Below, one piece after another: positions 2,696 through 52,648 of a stretch of DNA of 64,000 bases (its first letter is position 1; each line of letters opens with the position of its first letter). The position numbers were made by a program, and so were the translations under genes. Origin of the DNA: Gloeothece citriformis PCC 7424 (GTDB lineage Bacteria; Cyanobacteriota; Cyanobacteriia; Cyanobacteriales; Microcystaceae); assembly GCF_000021825.1 (NCBI RefSeq), contig NC_011729.1:1698919-1762918 (forward strand), in the 5' to 3' direction. The notes beneath the pieces were generated by a model. That model did not search any database and had not been told where the DNA came from. It saw only the letters and a list, made by a program, of their open reading frames with translations.

Positions 2696-4087
2696 ATGGC
2701 CAAACTTGTTCCTATTCCTGTCAATCGTCCCTCGTGGTGGCAAATGGTACAGTGGATTAGTGACCCCCTCAGTTTTCAGCAAAAATGGGCGAAAAAATGT
2801 GGAGATATCTTTTTGATTAACCTATGGAGATATAATGATAATCTTGTCGTTGTGGGGAGTCCTCAACTGATTCAAGAGATTTTTAACAAAGATGCTACCC
2901 AATTTGATATCGGGAGAGGTAATCAGATCGTAGCCCCTTTAGTGGGACAAAATTCTTTATTTTTGATGGATGGCACTCGCCATAAACGAGAACGAAAGTT
3001 ATTGATGCCCTCCTTTCATGGGGAAAGATTACAAACTTATGCTCAACAAATTTGTGAGATAACAAAAGAAGTAGCCAGTCAATGGCAAAAAGATAAACCC
3101 TTTATTGCCCGAACTGTGATGCAGGATATTACCCTAGAGGTGATTATACAGGTAGTTTTTGGTTTGCGGGAAGGGGAAAGATATCAAAAAATTAAACCCT
3201 TATTAGCCGCGATGCTCAATATGATAGATTCTCCTTTACCTTCAAGTTTTTTATTTTTAAGGTTTTTACAAAAAGATTTAGGAGCATGGAGTCCTTGGGG
3301 AAAATTAAAGCACCGTCAACTGCAAATTAGAAAACTTTTGGAGGCAGAAATCGAAGATAGACGGACTCACAACTTTATCGGAACAGATATTCTCAGTTTG
3401 ATGATGGCTGTAAGGGATGAAAATGGTGAACCGATGAGTGATTTAGAATTAAAAGATGAACTGATGACCCTCTTATTTGCTGGTCATGAAACGACCGCTA
3501 CGATCTTAGCTTGGGCGTTTTATAAAATTCATCAATTGCCAGAAGTCAGGGACAAAATTGTCCAAGAACTGGATAGTTTAGGGGAAAAACCGAATCCGAT
3601 GGAGATAGCTAAACTGCCCTATTTAAATGCAGTTTGTCAAGAAACCTTGAGAATGTATCCGGTGATTCCCGTTCTTTTACCTCGTATTACTAAAACTCCT
3701 ATGGACATTGGAGACTATCATTTTGAGGCAGGAATGGCACTGATGCCGAGTATTTATCTGGTTCATTATCGAGAAGATCTTTATCCTCAACCTCAAGAAT
3801 TTAAACCGGAAAGATTTTTAGATCGTCAATATTCACCCTCAGAATTTATTCCGTTTGGGGGGGGGAGTCGACGGTGTTTAGGTTATGCCTTAGCTCTCCT
3901 AGAAATGAAGTTAGTCCTTGGGACAATTTTATCGAGTTATCAACTGGCTCTGGTCGATAATAAGCCTGTTAAAATACAACGTCGAGGGCTTACTCTAGCT
4001 CCGGTTGGAGGAGTTCCCCTAGTGATGAAATCTAAGCGTCAACCTAAATCCCCATCCTCTCAAAAAACTGCTAGCCTAATTCCATAA
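2696..4087 (+). CDS. Cytochrome P450
   Basis: Helix-I AGHETTA, ExxR (ETLR), and the heme-Cys loop [14 protein letters not shown]. Confidence 0.9.
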
Positions 4088-4109
4088 CAACTCAATATAA
4101 ATAATAACC

Positions 4110-5513
4110 ATGACCTCTATGACAAAAACTGTTTCTGGCTCTAAAACTCCGGGTTTTCTACAACAAATTAATTGGGCGTTTGATCCTGTAAGCTATTTAG
4201 AAACCAATCATCAAAAATATCCCGATCTCTTTTTCACCCAGGCAGCGAGTGGAAATTATCCAATCGTCTATATTAGCCATCCCCAAGGGATACAACAAAT
4301 TTTAACCAATGATAAAAAACTCTTTTTGGCTTCTTCAGAGACTAACGATATTTTTCGTCCGTTACTCGGAGATTATTCCCTAATTTTATTAGAAAAAGAG
4401 CCTCATCAACAACGACGACAGTTGTTAGCTCCTCCTTTTCATGGCGAAAGATTATACAGTTATGGTCAATCAATCTGTAGAATAACTCAAGAAGTGATGA
4501 ATCGGCTAGGGGTAGGCAATCAGTTTACTGCTCGTAAAATAACTCAAAGTATCACAATGCAAGTGATCTTAGAAGTCGTTTTTGGCATTTATGAAGGAGA
4601 AAGATATCAACAACTGAAGACACTTCTCGGAAAAATGTTAGATATTTTCAATTCGCCTGTGTCTTCTGCTTTCCTTTTATTTTCGGCACTGCAAATTAAT
4701 TTAGGCTCTTGGAGTCCTTGGGGACAATTTTTACGTCAGAGAGCAAAAATTGATGAGTTAATTTATCAAGAAATAGCAGAACGTCGAGCTAATTTTGATC
4801 CCAATGCAACCGATATTCTCTCTTTATTAATGTCAGTTCGCTATGAAGACGGACAACCCATGACTGATAAAGAATTGCGTGATGAGTTGATGACCTTACT
4901 TGTTGCTGGCCATGATACCACGGCCACGGCGATGGCTTGGGGTTTATATTGGATTCATCATTTGCCAGAAGTCAAAGAAAAACTCTTACAAGAACTGGCC
5001 ACATTAGGAAATAATCCTGATCCGATGGAGATGGTTCGCCTTCCCTATTTAAGTGCTGTTTGTAATGAAACCCTCCGTATCACTCCAGTGGCCATGTTAA
5101 CTTTTCCTCGCATTGCTCAAGAACCGGTAGAGGTGATGGGATATACTATCGAACCCGGAACAGCCGTGTTAGGATGTATGTTTTTAACTCATCAACGAGA
5201 AGATTTATATCCTAATCCTAAACAATTTAAACCGGAGCGTTTCCTCGAAAATAAATATTCTCCCTATGAATTTATTCCTTTTGGGGGTGGCGCTCGTCGT
5301 TGTGTTGGGGATGCTTTAGCTCCTTTTGAGTTAAAGTTAGTTTTAGGGACTATTATGTCTAATTATGAACTTTCTTTAGCAGATAATCGCCCAGAAAAAT
5401 TACAACGACGAGGCTTAACTTTAGGCCCGGCCAGAGGAGTCAAAATGATTTTTAACGGAAAACGTCAACAAAAATCAGTTATGAGTCAAGAGTCATTAGT
5501 TAGTAGTCATTAG
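4110..5513 (+). CDS. Cytochrome P450, tandem paralogue
   Basis: AGHDTTA, ETLR and FGGGARRCVGDALA. Same architecture as the upstream P450, starting 23 bp after it. Confidence 0.9.
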   Translation: MTSMTKTVSGSKTPGFLQQINWAFDPVSYLETNHQKYPDLFFTQAASGNYPIVYISHPQGIQQILTNDKKLFLASSETNDIFRPLLGDYSLILLEKEPHQQRRQLLAPPFHGERLYSYGQSICRITQEVMNRLGVGNQFTARKITQSITMQVILEVVFGIYEGERYQQLKTLLGKMLDIFNSPVSSAFLLFSALQINLGSWSPWGQFLRQRAKIDELIYQEIAERRANFDPNATDILSLLMSVRYEDGQPMTDKELRDELMTLLVAGHDTTATAMAWGLYWIHHLPEVKEKLLQELATLGNNPDPMEMVRLPYLSAVCNETLRITPVAMLTFPRIAQEPVEVMGYTIEPGTAVLGCMFLTHQREDLYPNPKQFKPERFLENKYSPYEFIPFGGGARRCVGDALAPFELKLVLGTIMSNYELSLADNRPEKLQRRGLTLGPARGVKMIFNGKRQQKSVMSQESLVSSH

Positions 5514-5826: not shown

Positions 5827-6489
5827 TTATTTAAATAAACAAGCTAATAATTTTTCTCTCATGAATTTAAAATTGCTAAATCCATAACTTTGACGAAGAA
5901 TTAACTTAATTTTATTGTTTAATCCTTCCATTACTCCATTGCTTGTTCGATTAAGAAAATAATTACAAATATTCTGAAGATGAAGTTCTAAAGTCTCAGC
6001 CGTTTTTCCGAAAAAAACTCTGGCTAATCTTAACCATTTTTTGAGTTTTTTTAAACCTTCTTTTACCGTTCTTGTGTTTTCATATATATTTCTCAGTTCT
6101 TCTTTCAATTCATAAGCAATACTCAAACAAGGATAGCCTCTTAATAGCTCTCCTAAGTCTTTTTTTTCTTCTTCAGTTAAATTGACCTTATTCTTAAGTA
6201 ATAAATAGCGGTTTTTTAAGCCTTTTAACTTTAATTTAAGTCGCAAGTGATTTAAGGCTTTATGAACTAACTTCATGACATGAAACCTATCAATTACGAC
6301 TAGAGCATTAGGAAAAACCTCAGTAATAACTTTTTTAAATCCTCCCCACATATCGACACAAACCTCTTTAATATTTTCTCTAATTGAAATTGGAGCTTGT
6401 TTTAGGACTTCTATAATCTCTTCACTTTTATGGGAATCTATAACTTCTAATAGTGAGCCTTCATCTAGATTACTGAGTACGGTAACCAA
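5827..6489 (-). pseudogene. ISL3 transposase, C-terminal DDE part
   Basis: It continues the ISL3 fold (VIDRFHVMK…). The reading frame is displaced relative to the upstream part. Confidence 0.6.
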
Positions 6490-6527
6490 ATTGCCTTGCC
6501 CTTTTTGACGGCTAAATTCATCTAATC

Positions 6528-6977
6528 CTAATCTTTCTGGTTTTCCCCAGTCTTTTTTTTTTGTTTAGCTATTCTTTGAAAAATATTTTGTACTTGTTCA
6601 GGACTTAATTGTTCATTTTTACTGACTTGCTCTACAGTGAGTTCTTTGACTTTTTCATAAATATGCTCTTCATAACGTTTAGTATAGTTTCTTCGCCTGT
6701 CTATAAAATTTAAAATTTCAGTTGGATATTTACCGCATTGGGAGCAGATAAATTGGCGACGTGGAACTTTCAGGTAAACTCCTTGACCTAAAATTGATAA
6801 ATCTCTAACTAAAATAGGGCGGATTTGATGAAGATTATCTGTATATGTTTGGCAATGAGGACAAGAAATTCCTTCGTTTATAAAATCTAATGTTAATAGA
6901 ATAAATCCTTCTTGTTGTTGACAAGTTAATACAGTTACAAAGGGAAGATGAAGCAAGCTATCAAGGTGAAAATCCAT
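6528..6977 (-). pseudogene. ISL3 transposase, N-terminal part (zinc-finger/HTH region)
   Basis: MDFHLDSLLHLPFVTVL start and CPHC...CSQCG zinc-binding pattern typical of ISL3 transposases. It ends just before a T10 homopolymer (~6549-6558). Confidence 0.6.
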
Positions 6978-21204: not shown

Positions 21205-22422
21205 TTGATGAGAATGAGTTTATCGATTAAACAAATAGGAATTTCTTTAGGATTATTAGCAGTTGGCACTGGTATAGGGGTTTTAGGAAGTCAACATTTA
21301 ATCAACCAACCAACAACAACGGCACAACAAAAGCCCCAGCAAATAGTGCCGGCAGGACTCCCTTCCTTTTCTTTACCCACGAATTCATCACAAAACGATG
21401 AAGATTTAAACTTTATTGCTAAAGCCGTAAAAAAGGTGGGGCCGGCAGTGGTGAGAATTGATGCAGCCAGAGAAGTCGCCCAACAACTGCCCGAAGGCTT
21501 TGAACATCCTTTATTTCGTCATTTCTTTGGCAATGAAGTTCCTATCCCCAAAGATCATATAGAACGGGGTACAGGCTCAGGATTTATTATAAGCTCCGAT
21601 GGAGAATTGCTCACTAATGCCCACGTCGTTCAAGGTGCAACGGCGGTAAAAGTCACCCTCAAAAATGGTCGAACTTATGAGGGACAAGTGATAGGAATAG
21701 ATGAGATGACCGATGTGGCAGTGGTTAAAATTGAGGCCACTGATTTACCTACCGTCAGTTTAGGAGAAGCACAAACGTTACAGCCTGGGGAATGGGCGAT
21801 CGCTATTGGCAATCCTTTAGGATTAGATAATACGGTAACAGTAGGTATTATTAGCGCGTTAGGGCGTACTAGCACCGAGGTGGGAGTTCCCGACAAACGG
21901 GTGAGGTTTATTCAAACCGATGCCGCTATTAACCCCGGTAATTCTGGGGGGCCGTTACTAAATTCTCAAGGGGAAGTCGTGGGAATTAATACGGCTATTC
22001 GGGCGAATGCACAAGGGTTAGGGTTTGCAATTCCCATTGAAACGGCGACTAAAGTGGCGGATCAACTATTTACCACTGGAAAAGCAGAACATCCCTATTT
22101 AGGAATTCATATGGTAACCCTTACTCCAGAAATAAGGGAACAGGTCAATAAAAGTGAAGAGTTTAAGATTAAAATTGCTCAAGATATAGGGGTGTTAGTG
22201 ATTCGGGTTGTGGATAATTCTCCAGCACAACAAGCCGGATTTCAAGCCGGGGATATTATTGAAGAAGTCGGAGGTCAACCGGTAGAAACGGCCACAGATG
22301 TACAAGAACAAGTAGAAGCCAGTACCATCGGAGAAGATTTAGAGGTAAAAATTAACCGTCAAGGAGCAACAAAAATTCTGGCAGTACGTCCGGGCGCATT
22401 TCCCGAACAATCCATGAGATAA
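21205..22422 (+). CDS. htrA: HtrA/DegP-family serine protease with PDZ domain
   Basis: Signal/TM N-terminus. Catalytic triad context includes TNAHVV and GNSGGPLLN. A C-terminal PDZ domain is present. Confidence 0.9.
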   Translation: MMRMSLSIKQIGISLGLLAVGTGIGVLGSQHLINQPTTTAQQKPQQIVPAGLPSFSLPTNSSQNDEDLNFIAKAVKKVGPAVVRIDAAREVAQQLPEGFEHPLFRHFFGNEVPIPKDHIERGTGSGFIISSDGELLTNAHVVQGATAVKVTLKNGRTYEGQVIGIDEMTDVAVVKIEATDLPTVSLGEAQTLQPGEWAIAIGNPLGLDNTVTVGIISALGRTSTEVGVPDKRVRFIQTDAAINPGNSGGPLLNSQGEVVGINTAIRANAQGLGFAIPIETATKVADQLFTTGKAEHPYLGIHMVTLTPEIREQVNKSEEFKIKIAQDIGVLVIRVVDNSPAQQAGFQAGDIIEEVGGQPVETATDVQEQVEASTIGEDLEVKINRQGATKILAVRPGAFPEQSMR

Positions 22423-22480
22423 ATATCTAAACTTTCATTTACCTATTAAAATTGGCAAAAACACATCGGATAACCAAAAA

Positions 22481-22882
22481 ATGCAGACTTATGAAAAAGA
22501 CTTTTATCAATGGACGATAGACCAAGCACAAGCTTTACGATCGCGTGATGATAGCTCTTTAGATTGGAATAATTTAACTCTTGAGATAGAATCATTGGGT
22601 AAGGAGCAACTACACGCTGTAGAAAGTTATTTAAAACAATTAATCGCCCATCAGTTTAAGCTTCAATATGTGGATGACGAGTATTGTCGTAGGGGTTGGC
22701 AAAAAGAAATTAACAACTTTCTCGATCAAATCGAAGATCGCTTAACCAATTCCATGAAACCTAAAATTGATTTAGAAAAGGTTTATCGACGGGCAAGACG
22801 GGATGTATTGATAGATTACCCGGAGCTTGAGGGGATACTTCCTGAAAAATGTCCTGACAGTCTTGATGATCTGTTGAGGTAA
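22481..22882 (+). CDS. DUF29-family protein
   Basis: N-terminal YEKDFYQWTIDQAQALRSRD is the DUF29 signature common in cyanobacteria. Confidence 0.7.
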   Translation: MQTYEKDFYQWTIDQAQALRSRDDSSLDWNNLTLEIESLGKEQLHAVESYLKQLIAHQFKLQYVDDEYCRRGWQKEINNFLDQIEDRLTNSMKPKIDLEKVYRRARRDVLIDYPELEGILPEKCPDSLDDLLR

Positions 22883-22898
22883 CTGGGGACATATCGAC

Positions 22899-23786
22899 AT
22901 GAATAGAGTGTTAATTACGGGTGCTAGTGGTTTTTTAGGCTGGAATCTTTGCCAAATTGCTCAAACGTCCTGGGAAATTTATGGAACGTATTATTCCCAT
23001 GCTATTCAATCCCCAAATGTTAATTTTTTAAAAGTTGACTTGACAGATTTTAATAATCTTAAACAACTTTTTGCTGATGTCAACCCCACTGGGGTCATTC
23101 ATCTGGCGGCTCAATCTAAACCTAATTTTTGTCAACAGTATCCTGAACCCTCTTATTTAATTAATGTAACGACTTCGTTAAATATTGCGGGTTTATGTGC
23201 GGATTATGATATTCCCTGTGTTTTTACCTCTACTGATCTAGTTTTTGATGGATTAAATCCACCTTACAAAGAAACTGATCCGGTTTCCCCTATTAGTTAT
23301 TATGGAGAACAAAAAGTTCTGGCTGAACAGGGAATGTTACAACGGTATCCTAAGACCGTAATTTGTAGAATGCCGTTAATGTTCGGCTTCCCGTCTCCTG
23401 TGGCGGATAGTTTTATTCAATCTTTTCTTACAACTCTGCAACAAGGAAAAGAGTTAAAGTTATTTATCGATGAGTGGAGAACTCCAGTCAGTGGCTCAAC
23501 GGCAGCAAAAGGACTGTTATTAGCCTTAGAAAAAGGAGAGAGAATACTCCATTTAGGGGGAAAAGAGAGGATTTCTCGTTATGAATTTGGGGGGTTAATG
23601 GCAGAGGTTTTACAACTGAAAACAGAGCTAATTAAGCCTTGTTCCCAGAAAGATGTGATTATGGCTGCTCCTCGACCGACTGATGTTTCTTTAGATAGTT
23701 CCAAGGCTTTCGCGTTAGGATATGAGCCGTTATCGCTACGGGAAGAATTGCAACAATTAAAGAGCTTGGTTGGGGAAAATATGTAG
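22899..23786 (+). CDS. NAD(P)-dependent sugar-nucleotide reductase/epimerase (SDR; RmlD-like)
   Basis: Rossmann ITGASGFLG N-terminus, ~295 aa, and a YxxxK region. Confidence 0.7.
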   Translation: MNRVLITGASGFLGWNLCQIAQTSWEIYGTYYSHAIQSPNVNFLKVDLTDFNNLKQLFADVNPTGVIHLAAQSKPNFCQQYPEPSYLINVTTSLNIAGLCADYDIPCVFTSTDLVFDGLNPPYKETDPVSPISYYGEQKVLAEQGMLQRYPKTVICRMPLMFGFPSPVADSFIQSFLTTLQQGKELKLFIDEWRTPVSGSTAAKGLLLALEKGERILHLGGKERISRYEFGGLMAEVLQLKTELIKPCSQKDVIMAAPRPTDVSLDSSKAFALGYEPLSLREELQQLKSLVGENM

Positions 23787-24001
23787 TTTTATAAATAAGA
23801 ATTAAATTAAATTAAAAAAGATTGAAGTAATTGAACTAATTTAAAATTTTTCAAAAATAGAAAGAAAAACTCTCTTAGATATTAAATAGTCATTTAGAAT
23901 AAAAGTGAATTCCAAAAAGACTAGAGAGATTCAAAGGAATCATTGTTTTTTTAAGTCTCCACACATTATTAATTATTTTGTTGCGTTGAAGCAAGGAAAG
24001 G

Positions 24002-25078
24002 TTGCTTATGAGCAATGTCATTTTAGGTCGTCGTGAATTAGATCTGGGTACTACTTGGGAAAAATTCTGTCAGTGGATAACTAGCACAGAAAATCGCATC
24101 TACATCGGATGGTTTGGCGTATTAATGATTCCTACGCTTTTTGCGGCTGCCATGTGTTTTGCGATCGCTTTTGTCTGCGCTCCCCCAGTGGATATGGACG
24201 GAATTAGAGAGCCTGTTTTGGGGTCTTTATTAAGTGGCAATAACTTCATTAGTGCGGCTGTCATTCCCACCTCCGCCGCCATCGGATTACATTATTATCC
24301 GATTTGGGATGCTGCCTCTCTAGATGAGTGGTTATACAATGGAGGGCCTTATCAATTAATTATTTTCCATTTCCTGATCGGGATTTGGTGCTATTTAGGA
24401 CGTTTATGGGAATTAAGCTATCGTTTAGGGATGCGTCCTTGGATTGCGGTGGCTTATTCTGCGCCGGTTGCTGCGGCTAGTGCGGTTTTCCTCGTGTATC
24501 CTATTGGTCAAGGGAGTTTTTCTGAAGGAATGCCTCTGGGTATCAGTGGAACATTTTACTTTATGTTAGGGTTTCAAGCTGACCACAATATTTTAATGCA
24601 CCCTCTGCATATGTTAGCAGTAGCAGGGATTTTTGGCGGTGCTTTATTGTCTTCTTTACATGGATCTTTGGTCACTTCTAGTTTAGTTCAAGAAACCACT
24701 GAAGAAGAATCCATTAACCAAGGCTATAGATTTGGTCAACAAGAAACCACCTATAATTTACTTGCCGGTCATGAGGGTTATTTAGGTCGTCTTTTAGTCC
24801 CTGGACTCGGTTTACGCAATAGTCGCTCTCTCCACTTTATCATTGCGGCTGTTCCTGTGATTGGGATTTGGTGCGCTACCTTAGCGGTAGGAACAATGGC
24901 TTTTAATCTCAACGGATTTAATTTTAATCAATCTGTTGTGGATAGTCAGGGTCATCCTATTTACACCGATGCAGATTTACTGAACCGAGCTAATTTAGGA
25001 ATTAGAGCAATGCACGCTCCTAATGCTCATCATTTTCCTTTAACTTTAGCCGGAGGAGAAGCTTTACCGATTAGTTAA
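24002..25078 (+). CDS. psbA: Photosystem II D1 homologue with altered Mn-cluster ligands (rogue/sentinel D1, rD1 type)
   Basis: Full-length D1 fold is present ([24 protein letters not shown]…NGFNFNQSV). The canonical Mn4CaO5 ligands are changed: D170 to E (GSFSEG), E189 to D (FQADHN), E333 to A (MHAPNAH) and D342 to T (PLTLA). The C-terminal extension is short. Confidence 0.85.
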
Positions 25079-25214
25079 TGATTGCTATTTCTAGTTAACA
25101 AGATTATCTGGCGTTCCCTTTTTCGGAGCGCTTTTTTTTCGCGTACTTTTGAGATCCTTAAGGTAAAAATTATATAATAGTTATTATTTCGATATTAAGC
25201 CAAACCAATAGAAG

Positions 25215-26087
25215 ATGACTTATCTTAAAGATCAATCCAGTACAACAACACAAATTTTTATTAGTTATGTGGGATCAGATATAGTTGCTGCAAAAGCAAT
25301 TGTAGAAGGGTTAAGATCCCGTAATCTTGATGTGTGGTTGGATGAATATGAACTTAAAGCTGGAGAAAATTGGGTTGATTCTATTCGTAATGCTATTTCA
25401 GCAAGTTCCTACTTTTTCCTGCTACTATCCAAAGATTCTGTAAATTCCCCTTTTATAAATACCGAATTTATTTCTATACTTAAGGAATTGCAAATCCGAA
25501 ATATTACATTAATACCAATTCTTTTAGAAAATTGTGAGATTCCGCAACCGTTAGCCGTCTATCAGTTTTTCGATATGAGAAGCGGAATAGAGGAAAATTT
25601 AGACCAATTAGCTAATACTCTTAAATCTGCCTCAAAAATTGATTTTGAAAAATTAACTCCAAAAACATTTGACCAACTCGTTATAGATCTTCTTAAAAAA
25701 CTAGGTTTTGTCAATTCTAAGCTTAATAGTCAAATTAACGAGTTAGGTATTGACGCTATCGTAGAGTTTCCACAAAAAGACCCTTTTGGCTCTGAAATCC
25801 GTGAAATTTATTTAGTTGAAACTAAGTTTTATCGCCATTCTCGTCCTGATTTGCGAGCGCTTAGACAACTTGTTGAATATACTAAAATACTTTCTGAAAT
25901 TGATCAAGCCCTTCTTATTACTAACGGACAACTTACTTCTACTGCTCATGATTGGGCAAATGATGCAACAAAAAATACTGGTATTCCAATTCGTATTATT
26001 GATGGGACAGAATTGAAGCGACTTCTGCTACAAAACACCGATTTAGTTTCTCAATACTTTACTCCTATTCTGAGTAATGCTTCATGA
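25215..26087 (+). CDS. TIR domain fused to an Mrr-type restriction-endonuclease (PD-(D/E)xK) domain
   Basis: The N-terminal ~130 aa are TIR-like (IFISYVGSD…VWLDEYELKAGENWVDSIRNAI…FFLLLSKDSVNSPFINTEF). The C-terminus matches the Mrr catalytic domain (GIDAIV…VETKFY…ALLITNGQLTSTA…IRIIDGTEL). The gene is AT-rich. Confidence 0.8.
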   Translation: MTYLKDQSSTTTQIFISYVGSDIVAAKAIVEGLRSRNLDVWLDEYELKAGENWVDSIRNAISASSYFFLLLSKDSVNSPFINTEFISILKELQIRNITLIPILLENCEIPQPLAVYQFFDMRSGIEENLDQLANTLKSASKIDFEKLTPKTFDQLVIDLLKKLGFVNSKLNSQINELGIDAIVEFPQKDPFGSEIREIYLVETKFYRHSRPDLRALRQLVEYTKILSEIDQALLITNGQLTSTAHDWANDATKNTGIPIRIIDGTELKRLLLQNTDLVSQYFTPILSNAS

Positions 26088-26623
26088 GTGAAATTATTGA
26101 TTTAATCAAGTGGCTTGATAACTGTCCTGCTGGAAAAAAAGGATGGCGCGAATTTGAAGATCTCTGTGTAGATATTCTTAAATTTCTCTTTGTTCCTCCA
26201 TTAGTTGAACCTAAAATTCAATCTCGGACATACTCTGGCATAAATCGACGAGATGCTGTATTTCCTAATCGTAATTTTGAGCAAACAAAGGGTTGGGGGT
26301 TACTTTTACGTGAATTAAATGCAAGAATGGTACTTTTTGAATTTAAAAATTATGATTTAACAGAAATAGGAAAGGAGGAAGTTATTCAAACTGATAATTA
26401 TTTAACTGAACCAATGGGGAGACTTGGAATTATGGTATGTAATAAACTTCCTAATAATACAGCCCATATTCAACGAAATACTCTCTATAGTCGCAACCGT
26501 AAAGTAATTATTTTTATGACAAAAGCTCATTTAAAAGAAATGCTTTTGATTAAAGAACGAGGGGAAGATCCTTGTGATTTAATTATTGATCTCGTTGAGG
26601 AATTTTATTTACAACATGAATGA
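26084..26623 (+). CDS. Hypothetical PD-(D/E)xK-like nuclease-fold protein, translationally coupled to the TIR-Mrr gene
   Basis: Its start overlaps the upstream stop (ATGA). Motifs RRDAVF…VLFEFKNY fit a D…ExK pattern. No family was recognised. Confidence 0.45.
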   Translation: MSEIIDLIKWLDNCPAGKKGWREFEDLCVDILKFLFVPPLVEPKIQSRTYSGINRRDAVFPNRNFEQTKGWGLLLRELNARMVLFEFKNYDLTEIGKEEVIQTDNYLTEPMGRLGIMVCNKLPNNTAHIQRNTLYSRNRKVIIFMTKAHLKEMLLIKERGEDPCDLIIDLVEEFYLQHE

Positions 26624-26680
26624 TAAAAATTTAATATAGCAATCAGGAATCAGATGTGAGAAATAGGTTTTTGAATCCCT

Positions 26681-26709
26681 GTAGAGACGTTGCATGCAAC
26701 GTCTCTACA
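26681..26709. repeat. Palindromic repeat family 5 (GTAGAGACGTTGCATGCAACGTCTCTAC)
   Basis: Perfect 28-bp palindrome. Two related copies lie at 50883-50910 and 50926-50953. Confidence 0.7.
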
Positions 26710-26837
26710 TTTATTTATAATGATGACTTCTCATAAATCATTCTTGATTGCTATAGTAACTCATTTTATACAATTTTGTTAAAAGTTTTTAAAAATACAA
26801 TTTTAAGCTACAATAAAAAAAATATATTTCTTTAAAT

Positions 26838-27293
26838 ATGTCTGAGCAATTTAAGTTTATTCTAGAGCGTTGTTCAACCAATCAACAAAAAGAGCTATTA
26901 ATTCAAATTAAATCTATTATTCTTCAAGATAGCAGAGTTAAAGAATTTCCTGAAACCCGTCACATAAAATATGGTTCAAATCAATCGAATATTTTTGCTG
27001 AAATAATTTTTTTAAAAAAGTGGGAGCATCCAAAATTATTTTTAACTTTACCTCGTGTTAATAATCAATATCAAATTACAAAAAATCGATGTAGATATGC
27101 TATAAATATTAATCCTGATGGAACTATTCCTGAAATAATATATATTTATCAAGTAAAAAAGATAAAATATGATAACAATTCTCGTCGTTTCTCTAGCCTT
27201 TTAAAAGCTTTAACAGAAAACTCGATAGATGATACAAATAATTTAGAACAACTTATAAAGTTAACTTTAGATAATAACTTAAAAAATTTGTAG
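26838..27293 (+). CDS. Hypothetical protein (AT-rich, no recognisable domain)
   Basis: 151-aa ORF with strongly AT-biased codons. Its stop codon sits inside the family-2 hairpin. Confidence 0.4.
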   Translation: MSEQFKFILERCSTNQQKELLIQIKSIILQDSRVKEFPETRHIKYGSNQSNIFAEIIFLKKWEHPKLFLTLPRVNNQYQITKNRCRYAININPDGTIPEIIYIYQVKKIKYDNNSRRFSSLLKALTENSIDDTNNLEQLIKLTLDNNLKNL

Positions 27294-27310
27294 GGTGGGC
27301 ATTGCCCACC
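27289..27310. terminator. Family-2 hairpin (GGTGGGCAtTGCCCACC) acting as a bidirectional terminator
   Basis: Perfect 8-bp GC stem exactly between the 3' ends of the 26838 ORF and thiOG. Confidence 0.5.
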
Positions 27311-27318
27311 GATATCAT

Positions 27319-36694: not shown

Positions 36695-37033
36695 TTATAT
36701 AGCCTCTAGATTAGTTTCTCCGGTTCTAATTCTCACGATTTCGGAAACTGAAGAAATAAAAATTTTCCCATCTCCAACTTCCCCAGTTTGAGCCGAATTT
36801 ACTAAAGCATCTATAATGGGACTGAGTTGATCATCATTGACGACGACTTCTACTTTAAGACGAGATTGAAAATCAACAGAATAGACTACTCCTCGATACT
36901 GTTCTTCTAACCCTTTTTGTCGTCCAAATTGCCGAAGTTCACTAATCGTCATCCCGATCACTCCTCGGCTAAGGATCGCGGTTTTTACTTCTTCTAATTT
37001 GTGAGAACGGATGATGGCTTCGATTTTTTTCAT
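36695..37033 (-). CDS. glnB: PII-family signal-transduction protein (GlnB-like, divergent T-loop)
   Basis: MKKIEAIIR…GDGKIF…RIRTGE core is present. The T-loop reads QFGRQKGLEEQYRGVVYSVDF, with V in place of the cyanobacterial S49. Confidence 0.75.
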   Translation of the reverse strand: MKKIEAIIRSHKLEEVKTAILSRGVIGMTISELRQFGRQKGLEEQYRGVVYSVDFQSRLKVEVVVNDDQLSPIIDALVNSAQTGEVGDGKIFISSVSEIVRIRTGETNLEAI

Positions 37034-50867: not shown

Positions 50868-50986
50868 TGACTAATGACTAATGTACAGACGTTGTATGCA
50901 ACGTCTCTACGACTGCTGACTAATGTACAGACGTTGTATGCAACGTCTCTACGACTACTGACTAATGACTACTGACTAATGACTAA
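50868..50986. repeat. Composite: TGACTAA heptamers flanking two copies of the family-5 palindrome, running into the ylqF start codon
   Basis: tgactaatgactaatgTACAGACGTTGTATGCAACGTCTCTACgactgctgactaatgTACAGACGTTGTATGCAACGTCTCTACgactactgactaatgactactgactaatgactaattc. Confidence 0.75.
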
Positions 50987-51824
50987 TTCTATACAATGGT
51001 ATCCAGGCCACATCGCCAAAGCCGAAAAAGAACTCAAAGAAAATCTTAAGCGAGTAGATGTAGTTTTAGAAGTTCTCGATGCTCGTATTCCTCTAGCTTC
51101 CCATCATCCTCAAGTGGGAGAATGGATAGGGACTAAACCTCGTATCTTAGTGCTGAACCGGGTTGATATGATCCCGGCTTCGGTGCAAAATCAATGGTTA
51201 AAATGGTTTAAAAGTCAAGGAGAAACCGCCTATTTTACCAATGCTAAACAAGGTCAAGGCATACAGGCTGTTAGTAAAGCCGCCCAAGCCGTAGGGGTGG
51301 AAATGAATCGTAAAAGGGGGGAACGGGGTTTATTACCTCGTCCGGTTCGGGCGGTGGTGATTGGCTTTCCTAATGTGGGAAAATCGGCTTTAATTAATCG
51401 ATTATTAGGCCGAAAAATTGTCGCTAGTGCCCGACGTGCCGGCGTGACTCGTCAACTCCGATGGGTACGCATTTCGGATGCCATAGAATTATTAGATGCT
51501 CCTGGGGTTATTCCTTCTAAATTAGAAGATCAAAATGATGCGATAAAGTTGGCTATTTGTGAAGATATTGGGGAAGCCGCTTATGATAATCAACGCATCG
51601 CCTCTAGTTTGATAGACTTATTAGTCAAGTTAGATTTTTTTTCGGTGTTAAAATCTCGTTATGGAGTTGATCCTTTAGAAGGAACTGGGGAAGACTATGT
51701 CTATAAATTAGCTCAAACTCGTTATCAAGAGGATAAAGAAAGGGCGGCTGTACAACTTTTAAATGATTTTCGCAAAGGATTTATGGGAGCTATTCCTTTA
51801 GAATTTCCTCCGACTAATCATTAA
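50979..51824 (+). CDS. rbgA: Ribosome biogenesis GTPase A (YlqF/RbgA)
   Basis: IQWYPGHIAKAEKEL start and a circularly permuted GTPase (NRVDMIP…GFPNVGKSALIN). Confidence 0.9.
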   Translation: MTNSIQWYPGHIAKAEKELKENLKRVDVVLEVLDARIPLASHHPQVGEWIGTKPRILVLNRVDMIPASVQNQWLKWFKSQGETAYFTNAKQGQGIQAVSKAAQAVGVEMNRKRGERGLLPRPVRAVVIGFPNVGKSALINRLLGRKIVASARRAGVTRQLRWVRISDAIELLDAPGVIPSKLEDQNDAIKLAICEDIGEAAYDNQRIASSLIDLLVKLDFFSVLKSRYGVDPLEGTGEDYVYKLAQTRYQEDKERAAVQLLNDFRKGFMGAIPLEFPPTNH

Positions 51825-52648
51825 GGGTTTAATACTTCATTAAGTACCGCTTCCACTTGTTCTAATCCACATCCTCCTTCCCCTTCAGCCCAATTTAAAA
51901 ATGCCGATACTCTTTGCCCCTGAGTGGTCATAGATGGGGGTATAATTCCTCTAGGGGGTGATAAGGTAAACATGATCATTTCTAACTGTTCTAACGGAAT
52001 TCCATTAAGCCCTTTCATTAACTGCATCCGAGTTTTAAATGAATTATTTTCTGCTGATTTTTTGGCCGGTTTAGGTTGATCTTGGGCTAATCTGGCTTCC
52101 ACTGCTTCTATAATTTCTTTAAAGTCGGATTGAAGATGTAAATTAGGAGTTAGAGTATTCATATTTTTCAGCAGATTAGTCAACTGAGCAATATTATTTC
52201 TAATCTCGGTGTAGAGATTAAGATCATCAGTAATGCCTTGTAAATTAGCCAGATTTCCTTGTTTCATCGCCGATTCAAGTTCACTGATTTGTTGTTCCCA
52301 ATGTTGAATATACTTTAAACGCCCTGTCGCCTGATAAATATTAGCATCTTCCAAAACAATCGGAAAAATGCGATCGTAGAAATCGCCGTGTTTAGCAATT
52401 TCCACCAATTCAAACATACAATTTTCGGATTTGAGATAGCGATCGCTAATAATAACCAGAATACACTTACCTTGTCCGATCTGCTCCATAAATTCCTTAA
52501 TCAGCCCTTTATAGCCTAAATTCGTCTTATCTCGGATAATGGTAATTCCCTGGTTCTGAAAAGCTTGTTCGAGTTGATTAGCGATTTTTTCGCTGTCGCC
52601 TCTCCAAGCGTAGGAAATAAAAACTTGAGGTGAACTATCTGTCTCCAT
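51821..52648 (-). CDS. TIR-domain protein with a C-terminal alpha-helical (effector-associated/death-like) domain
   Basis: N-terminal TIR (VFISYAWRGDSEKIANQLEQAFQNQGITIIRD…CILVIISDRYLKSENCMFELVEI). The C-terminal ~70 aa helical module is GIPLEQLEMIMFTLSPP…VSAFLNWAE…LEQVEAVLNEVL. Confidence 0.7.
   Translation of the reverse strand: METDSSPQVFISYAWRGDSEKIANQLEQAFQNQGITIIRDKTNLGYKGLIKEFMEQIGQGKCILVIISDRYLKSENCMFELVEIAKHGDFYDRIFPIVLEDANIYQATGRLKYIQHWEQQISELESAMKQGNLANLQGITDDLNLYTEIRNNIAQLTNLLKNMNTLTPNLHLQSDFKEIIEAVEARLAQDQPKPAKKSAENNSFKTRMQLMKGLNGIPLEQLEMIMFTLSPPRGIIPPSMTTQGQRVSAFLNWAEGEGGCGLEQVEAVLNEVLNP

Follow-up and report, generated by a model that had tools for sequence, protein, structure and literature searches.

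A Group 2 (rogue/sentinel) D1 paralog with substituted manganese-cluster ligands in Gloeothece citriformis PCC 7424

INTRODUCTION

Does the psbA homolog at positions 24008-25078 of a 64-kb stretch of the Gloeothece citriformis PCC 7424 genome (formerly Cyanothece sp. PCC 7424; contig NC_011729.1) encode an ordinary D1 protein of photosystem II (PSII), as its database name states, or a D1 that has lost the acidic ligands of the water-oxidizing manganese cluster? A first-pass annotation had read this gene as a rogue, or sentinel, D1 (rD1), expressed in the dark to build PSII that cannot evolve oxygen during nitrogen fixation. What Murray (2012) called the "rogue" D1, and Wegener et al. (2015) the "sentinel" D1, is the Group 2 D1 of PMC4408414. 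Here, we refer to the whole 64-kb stretch as the window and to the product of the gene as the window D1. We show that the window carries an intact Group 2 D1 gene under purifying selection, and we weigh what such a protein might do.

RESULTS

A full-length D1 gene with a revised start

The open reading frame (ORF) 24002-25078 on the plus strand is uninterrupted, but its listed TTG start at 24002 adds two residues. The gene actually begins with the ATG at 24008, because the N termini of orthologs (six begin at the equivalent Met), the core of the ribosome-binding site, and the length of the deposited protein all agree on it. The gene spans 24008-25078 (+) and encodes 356 amino acids plus a stop. 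Its product is identical from end to end to ACK70003.1 (WP_012598947.1; UniProt B7K9N5). It matches Pfam Photo_RC at 1.4e-87 and, in HMMER searches, aligns over its full length with solved D1 chains in the PDB at ∼1e-175 and ∼72% identity, versus ∼1e-45 for D2; the first reading of the ORF as a full-length D1 homolog was thus correct. The NCBIfam psbA equivalog model gives 615.9 bits, barely above its cutoff of 596 (the psbD model gives only 153 bits), and in databases it is named, like any standard D1, a "photosystem II q(b) protein." It is the sole member of its own 90%-identity cluster. We did not find strain 7424 in the supplements of two D1 phylogeny papers, nor the accession numbers of the window D1 cited in the literature, and the 64-kb window contains no second psbA and no nif gene.

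Four of seven cluster ligands are substituted

Residue states were read from a HMMER alignment to Thermosynechococcus elongatus PsbA3, from a 180-sequence MAFFT alignment numbered on plant D1, and directly from the codons. The three readings agree, and no gap falls around any ligand position. Among the seven Mn4CaO5 ligands (D170, E189, H332, E333, H337, D342, and A344), four are changed in the window D1, all of them acidic: D170E at the high-affinity Mn site (codon GAA, 24524-24526), E189D (GAC, 24581-24583, followed by H190), E333A (GCT, 25016-25018), and D342T (ACT, 25043-25045), all on the plus strand. These are exactly the four substitutions that the first-pass annotation had proposed. 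At the other positions of that check, H332, H337, and A344 are kept; the C-terminal ligand segment (25004-25051, +) reads R329-A-M-H332-A333-P334-N335-A-H337-H-F-P-L-T342-L-A344. The window D1 also keeps N335; Y161, the YZ tyrosine (24497-24499, +), with H190; H198, which ligates P680; and H215 and H272, which bind the non-heme iron. E333A and D342T each require at least two base changes and therefore do not reflect sequencing noise.

The four positions are invariantly D, E, E, and D in 16 tabulated standard D1 sequences; the 96 standard D1 sequences of our larger tree (see below) were chosen for that same ligand set. Further changes relative to standard D1 are R334P, E329R, N181Y, V185G, and W317D, and altogether the window D1 departs from standard D1 at 29 positions where the latter does not vary. 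The consequences of the ligand changes can be gauged from site-directed mutants of Synechocystis, as summarized in PMC4408414: water oxidation is lost with E189D, the cluster fails to assemble with E333A, and all substitutions of D342 except E abolish photoautotrophy, whereas D170E is tolerated.

The window D1 belongs to Group 2

Donor-side traits of Group 2 D1 are E170 (in a few cases D), mostly D189, a retained H332, and a lost E333, for which the 36 Group 2 sequences examined by Cardona et al. (2015) have A, S, or G, mostly A (PMC4408414). Position 342 is a nonligand residue (L, V, or M; in a few cases N, S, or T), A344 is often kept, N298, N322, N335, and H337 are conserved, E329 is mostly Q or R, and R334 is mostly P. 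On the acceptor side, H252 and G256 are kept, S264 is replaced by A or G, E244 is replaced, and position 130 is Q, L, or M; a one-residue insertion after H252 is unique to, and present in, all Group 2 sequences (PMC4408414). The window D1 carries every one of these hallmarks: E170, D189, H332, A333, P334, N335, H337, and T342, together with N298, N322, R329, the insertion after H252, G256, G264, T244, and L130. All of these states are common in our collection of 156 Group 2 sequences; E170 occurs in 138 and D189 in 85 of them, and near the donor site P334 (150/156), H338 (116/156), and H or Y at 181 (149/156) are conserved.

To place the protein, we inferred neighbor-joining (not maximum-likelihood) trees with 100 to 200 bootstraps, from data sets that lacked both Group 0 sequences and a D2 outgroup. 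Standard D1 (Groups 3 and 4, G3+G4) was represented by 15 sequences in the smaller tree and 96 in the larger one, 81 having been added from a homolog search with a standard D1 query. The split that sets G3+G4 apart from the window D1 received 100% bootstrap support in both trees, and still 97% (15 sequences) and 100% (96 sequences) after the 16 hallmark positions and the insertion had been removed. The window D1 pairs with a protein of Gloeothece verrucosa PCC 7822, along with one metagenomic sequence, at 83 to 88%. A 28-member subclade with the proteins of Cyanothece 51142 and Crocosphaera watsonii received 57%, or 37% without the hallmark columns, and Group 2 as a whole was separated from the rest at 41 to 72%. 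The phylogenetic check suggested by the first-pass annotation thus puts the protein outside G3+G4 and beside PCC 7822 PsbA4. With the hallmarks and the position outside G3/G4 in agreement, we conclude that the window D1 is a Group 2 (rogue/sentinel) D1 paralog, as had been called.

Group 1 was represented by P0124, the only full-length Group 1/ChlF-like sequence in the representative library search, where most matches were fragments or chimeras. P0124 carries Q127-D128, which we take to be the ChlF motif; the window D1 has L127-G128. Like the window D1, the "super-rogue" D1 of Group 1 (ChlF, chlorophyll f synthase) has E170 and D189 and lacks part of the Mn ligands, but ChlF differs in its Q127-D128, Q252, and E298, in the loss of H332, in having no insertion after position 252, and in belonging to a far-red-light gene cluster. 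The Group 1 markers are H252Q, W256, N298E/D, and the loss of H332 (PMC4408414); with H252, G256, N298, and H332, the window D1 has none of them, and no far-red-light (FaRLiP) photosystem genes are present in the 64-kb window.

The acceptor side and the precursor tail are remodeled

The QB pocket is encoded at 24770-24814 (+). Here, H252 is kept and is followed by an inserted E (24773-24775; H252 plus the insertion, 24770-24775) and then by G-Y-L-G256, with F255L, Q261P, Y262G, S264G (24809-24811), and F265L. N266R, E244T, and L130 are additional acceptor-side changes. In PMC4408414, S264G is described as a change of the herbicide-resistance type that slows transfer from QA to QB, bicarbonate binding is expected to change when E244 is lost, and L130 is linked to a low-potential pheophytin. 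The QB/non-heme-iron region had been described as well conserved, which holds for the iron ligands H215 and H272 and for H252 but not for the QB pocket, which is heavily altered.

Beyond A344, the precursor carries an 8-residue extension, GGEALPIS (25052-25075, +), in place of the 16 residues of standard cyanobacterial pre-D1 in the 180-sequence alignment; among Group 2 tails, a length of 8 is the most frequent (41/156). The earlier description of a truncated C-terminal tail applies to this extension only, since the mature part is of full length with A344 intact. The LDLA motif ahead of the CtpA cleavage site is LTLA in the window D1; in PsbA4 of Cyanothece 51142, the missing LDLA has been taken to mean that the C terminus is not processed (PMC9640542).

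Named relatives share the pattern

The closest named relative is PsbA4 of PCC 7822 (P0010, at locus L001), with 85% identity. Because of this identity and the same upstream genes, P0010 is presumably Cyan7822_3753. It has E170, D189, T342, A344, P334, R329, L130, G264, and L265 in common with the window D1 and differs in S333 (A333 in the window D1), in Q as the inserted residue (E in the window D1), in a 9-residue tail, and in E61. Upstream, the gene order is the same at both loci (Deg/HhoA-type protease, RmlD-like SDR, rD1); downstream, PCC 7822 has WecG and other genes, whereas the window has a TIR-Mrr islet and ThiO-ThiG. P0036 from Cyanothece (Crocosphaera subtropica) ATCC 51142, at 77% identity and likewise 356 residues long, repeats the window pattern (E170/D189/A333/P334/T342/A344, 8-residue tail, LTLA for LDLA). 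It is probably PsbA4, the member of the class that has been studied by experiment, since the missing LDLA is a psbA4 feature in PMC9640542; its gene neighborhood is not shared with the window. The rD1 of C. watsonii WH 8501 (P0058; 78% identity) has the same donor-side pattern but ends exactly at A344 and has H215Q, while the window D1 keeps H215 and a tail. Compared with standard D1 (T. elongatus PsbA3, 9m5a_A and 7yq7_A; PsbA1, 3wu2_A), the window D1 shares the five-helix fold, by homology, and the ligands for P680, YZ, pheophytin, and the non-heme iron, and it differs in the four acidic ligands, the rebuilt QB pocket with its one insertion, and the short tail.

Losses of other functional histidines occur elsewhere in Group 2. 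S or N replaces the PD1 (P680) histidine ligand at 198 in the Synechococcus/Thermostichus hot-spring types L040, L045, L047, L051, L052, and L075 (for example, ...MHPTSWLG... in L045) and also in P0117, L071, and P0091. H215Q, with loss of the histidine on the non-heme-iron/QB side (ALQGSLVTS), is found in P0058 and P0053, of the C. watsonii WH 8501 type, and in L006, P0034, P0046, P0050, P0054, and P0055. Halothece-type D1 proteins (L009, L019, P0052, P0092, P0103, and P0116) have the Group 2 insertion after H252, A80, L127, L130, and A286, along with D61L and D170E, yet keep E189, E333, D342, A344, and E329; in the neighbor-joining tree they branch between Group 2 and standard D1. An equation of the Halothece types with D1INT (Sheridan et al. 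2020) was considered but not adopted, as D1INT is described as lying between G3 and G4 and the Halothece types carry the Group 2 insertion.

What the protein may do

What a Group 2 D1 is for is the harder question. In our judgment, it is likely that Group 2 D1 gives a PSII that does not evolve oxygen and is kept in a ready state when oxygen is unwanted, chiefly during nitrogen fixation at night. The window D1 retains all that is needed for folding and charge separation: the five helices, H198, the pheophytin site, YZ-Y161/H190, and H215/H272. Ligation of the Mn4CaO5 cluster would be lost, with the bridging carboxylates E333 and D342 gone, E189 shortened to D, R334 replaced by P, and LDLA by LTLA. 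The acceptor side would be detuned by S264G, F265L, the insertion after H252, E244T, and L130, with slower QA-to-QB transfer, altered bicarbonate binding, and a lower pheophytin potential. By replacing standard D1, rD1 could then hold a non-oxygen-evolving PSII inactive but ready, mainly at night.

Orthologs and published mutants point the same way for the loss of oxygen evolution, dark expression, and physiological role that we predict. When the Group 2 D1 of Cyanothece 51142 was the sole D1 in Synechocystis, PSII was assembled and there was no photoautotrophic growth (from the summary given in PMC4408414). Both mRNA and protein of psbA4 of PCC 7822 (Cyan7822_3753) are induced in the dark (PMC4320622), and PMC4408414 lists expression of Group 2 D1 in the dark or in the N2-fixation phase for Cyanothece 51142, C. 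watsonii, and Anabaena variabilis. The first-pass annotation had predicted a diazotrophic source, and a large nif cluster has indeed been described in PCC 7424 (Bandyopadhyay et al. 2011; PMC3187577). Its claim of dark expression for a PSII that evolves no oxygen agrees with the expression of the orthologs, but the "sentinel" role is a hypothesis, and the knockout is mild.

Several observations weigh against this explanation. Group 2 D1 also occurs in nondiazotrophs (PMC9640542), and it is induced in the dark in vegetative cells of A. variabilis (PMC4408414); therefore, a link to nitrogenase protection is not general, and an rD1 gene alone is no diagnosis of diazotrophy. Deletion of psbA4 in Cyanothece 51142 has mild effects: a slight gain in growth without nitrogen, a small change in PSII titer, and faster charge recombination. 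The authors of that study concluded that PsbA4 is not required for regulating electron transport in the dark (PMC9640542). The same paper reports that PsbA4 is scarce relative to active PSII, which has led others to suggest that it serves as an enzyme. With E170, binding and photo-oxidation of Mn2+ might still be possible (PMC4408414). Finally, the expression and biochemical data come from orthologs of the PCC 7424 gene.

Some of these data suggest a role later in the daily cycle. The authors of the 51142 study proposed that PsbA4 limits PSII repair at dawn (PMC9640542), and rD1 might act at the dark-to-light transition, where it would hold the D1 slot, delay PSII repair, and so prolong the microoxic period for nitrogenase. 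The proposal comes from the psbA4 deletion, which has a higher PSII titer at D10-to-L2 and grows slightly better without combined nitrogen (PMC9640542). On the other hand, the effects are small and come from 51142, not PCC 7424. We regard a dawn role as possible though unlikely; the two roles, at dawn and as a ready-state PSII without oxygen evolution, are compatible.

A different idea is that the rD1 complex is a specialized photo-oxidoreductase, like ChlF, in which YZ/P680+ would oxidize a donor other than water (for example, Mn2+, a sulfur compound, a pigment, or another small molecule). No residue for charge separation or YZ is changed, H332, N335, and H337 are retained, and the conserved Group 2-specific donor-site residues (E170, P334, H338, and H/Y181) look as if a defined site had been selected for, not simply lost. 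An enzymatic function has been suggested in print because PsbA4 is present at low stoichiometry (PMC9640542). In other lineages, Group 2 psbA often has sulfide- and arsenite-type neighbors, which are suggestive as well. In Leptolyngbya, Pseudanabaena, Geitlerinema, and relatives, genes within 4 kb of Group 2 psbA encode a rhodanese (13 loci), an SBF transporter (9), an SQR-like Pyr_redox_2 protein (9), USP (8), an ArsA-type ATPase (7), ArsR (7), and a fusion of a PetC anchor, a Rieske domain, and a BLH phosphatase (8); the loci with such clusters are L008, L010, L011, L013, L014, L020, L028, L035, L037, L039, L041, L057, L058, L060, L061, and L066. The link between sqr and Group 2 psbA was described by Grim and Dick (2016) (PMC5061849), and we found no mention in the literature of the PetC-Rieske-BLH fusion beside Group 2 psbA.

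Against a photo-oxidoreductase, its substrate and activity are hypothetical; sqr, rhodanese, and ArsR genes were looked for near rD1, and neither they nor the other cluster genes listed above are present there in the window; PSII with heterologous PsbA4 simply behaved as inactive (PMC4408414); and the ChlF-specific QD motif is absent. An oxidoreductase of this kind is doubtful in our view. The narrower proposal, that the conserved donor pocket (E170, D189, H332, P334, N335, H337, and H338) with YZ/P680 makes rD1-PSII a light-driven nonwater oxidoreductase and not an inert placeholder, strikes us as quite doubtful; the enzyme-not-placeholder idea is already in the literature, and the window does not advance it. 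If it were true, the adjacency of SDR and rD1 and the rhodanese, SQR-like, ArsR, and PetC-Rieske neighbors would be hints to the chemistry.

The ligand changes could instead be random drift in a decaying, nonfunctional psbA duplicate, as the 29 differences at positions invariant in standard D1 and the singleton status at 90% identity might suggest. Yet the ORF of 356 codons is intact, and the ratio of nonsynonymous to synonymous substitution rates (dN/dS) is 0.078 at a dS of ∼1 relative to the PCC 7822 ortholog; this psbA paralog is under purifying selection. The same substitutions are common to 156 homologs across many cyanobacterial lineages, and the PCC 7822 ortholog is translated (PMC4320622). 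Expression signals are conserved or present, too. A Shine-Dalgarno-like sequence, AAGGAAAGG (23993-24001, +), has a GGA core (23995-23997) that is invariant in six orthologous upstream regions. A -10-like hexamer, TAGAAT (23895-23900, +), lies ∼108 nt 5′ of the ATG and is a putative promoter element in the upstream alignment; it is TAGAAT or TACAAT in five of the six orthologous regions and TACAAG in the sixth, and the consensus promoter scan passed over it because no good -35 element precedes it. An intrinsic-terminator-like hairpin of 8 pairs with a T run (25110-25140, +), 32 nt past the stop, separates psbA from a TIR gene that has its own promoter-like site in the promoter scan (25149-25178, +). 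Given the dN/dS ratio, the -10-like element, the terminator, and the separate promoter-like site of the next gene, the rD1 gene looks monocistronic and functional. Drift is a highly improbable reading, and the selection and conservation data refute it.

There is practically no chance that the ligand differences are misalignments and the window D1 is in truth a Group 4 (standard) D1, a Group 3 (microaerobic) D1′, or a Group 1 ChlF: its 72% identity to standard D1, its acceptance by the psbA equivalog model, its ordinary q(b) name, and A80 and A286, in common with Group 3, would favor this, but the essentially gap-free alignment around all ligand positions, the 100% split from 96 G3/G4 sequences, and the absence of Group 1 markers (QD at 127-128, Q252, W256, E/D298, and H332 loss) and of any FaRLiP context in the window refute it.

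The neighborhood of the gene

Four window proteins, the D1 (ACK70003) and three neighbors (ACK70002, ACK70004, and ACK70011), match consecutive or nearby GenBank entries of PCC 7424 exactly, and the 38.9% G+C of the window fits the published genome value of 38.0%. Directly 5′ of rD1 lies a gene for an RmlD-like SDR oxidoreductase (ACK70002; 22899-23786, +), which scores 166 bits versus a cutoff of 224 bits for the rmlD equivalog. It is preceded by a Deg protease gene of the HhoA/HhoB/HtrA family (21205-22422, +), which is syntenic with the PCC 7822 rD1 locus at 80% identity. The order SDR-rD1, with both genes on one strand and 200 to 275 bp between them, is found in PCC 7424, PCC 7822, and two metagenome-assembled genomes (window, 21205-23786; L001, 7654-9800; L002, 1694-2566; L007, 7902-8765). 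The protease precedes SDR-rD1 in the two Gloeothece strains, with a DUF29 gene between protease and SDR in PCC 7424 only. We treat the protease and SDR genes as genomic context of rD1.

Synteny with PCC 7822 stops at the psbA terminator. Beyond it is a 2.2-kb islet (25079-27318) with 30.6% G+C, flanked by genes of 43 to 47%. It holds a gene for a TIR_2-Mrr_cat fusion, a TIR/restriction-endonuclease protein (ACK70004; 25215-26087) that is a singleton at 90% identity; an ORF overlapping it (26084-26623), whose match (1.7e-19) is to the C-terminal portion of PDC-M36A, a candidate defense protein in PADLOC; and an orphan ORF (26838-27293) with 25% GC. An inserted defense islet, as the first-pass annotation had suggested, is plausible, being low in G+C relative to the 38.9% of the window and absent from the PCC 7822 locus; its position may instead be due to rearrangement.

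Two further genes with apparent ties to PSII and nitrogen lie downstream. A full-length psbB (CP47, ACK70011; 34336-35862), with 1034 bits to its equivalog, is ∼9 kb from rD1, and glnB, for the P-II nitrogen regulator (36695-37033), follows 1 kb past psbB on the other strand. Their nearness to rD1 is probably coincidental. Elsewhere in the window, a gene for a TIR-domain protein (51821-52648, −) converges on a small-GTPase gene (50979-51824, +) with a 4-bp overlap of the 3′ ends, and the two may be another defense-type pair. An ISL3-family transposase (5827-6977, −) is split into two ORFs, zinc ribbon/HTH (6528-6977) and DDE (5827-6489), which suggests a frameshifted or degenerate insertion sequence copy; two tandem cytochrome P450 genes (2696-5513) adjoin it.

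At other loci, we noted the following. In Cyanothece 51142 (L082, 17289-19998), genes for TauE, a rhodanese with a YgaP-like TM region, Lactamase_B, and an ArsR-type regulator lie 6 to 9 kb downstream of psbA4, and these sulfur-related neighbors echo the neighbors of Group 2 psbA in other lineages. The Group 2 psbA genes of L072, L074, L076, and L080 are split over two or three frames and are either frameshifted pseudogenes or assembly errors. L062 (DGOV01000074.1), an 82-kb contig labeled "Proteobacteria bacterium UBA4457," carries a standard psbA, and the bin is probably mislabeled or contaminated.

DISCUSSION

The locus poses a question of identity and one of function. The first has a plain answer: PCC 7424 has a Group 2 D1. 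The class was defined by Cardona et al. (2015) and, before them, Murray (2012), orthologs have been studied in Cyanothece 51142 and PCC 7822, and GenBank has contained the protein since the deposition of the PCC 7424 genome. The second, the physiology of Group 2 D1, is the real question, given a mild knockout phenotype and the low abundance of the protein, and it is one that the window does not advance. For the family, the locus carries a practical lesson: standard annotation hides the difference between rD1 and ordinary D1, as a protein that just passes the equivalog cutoff receives the ordinary name.

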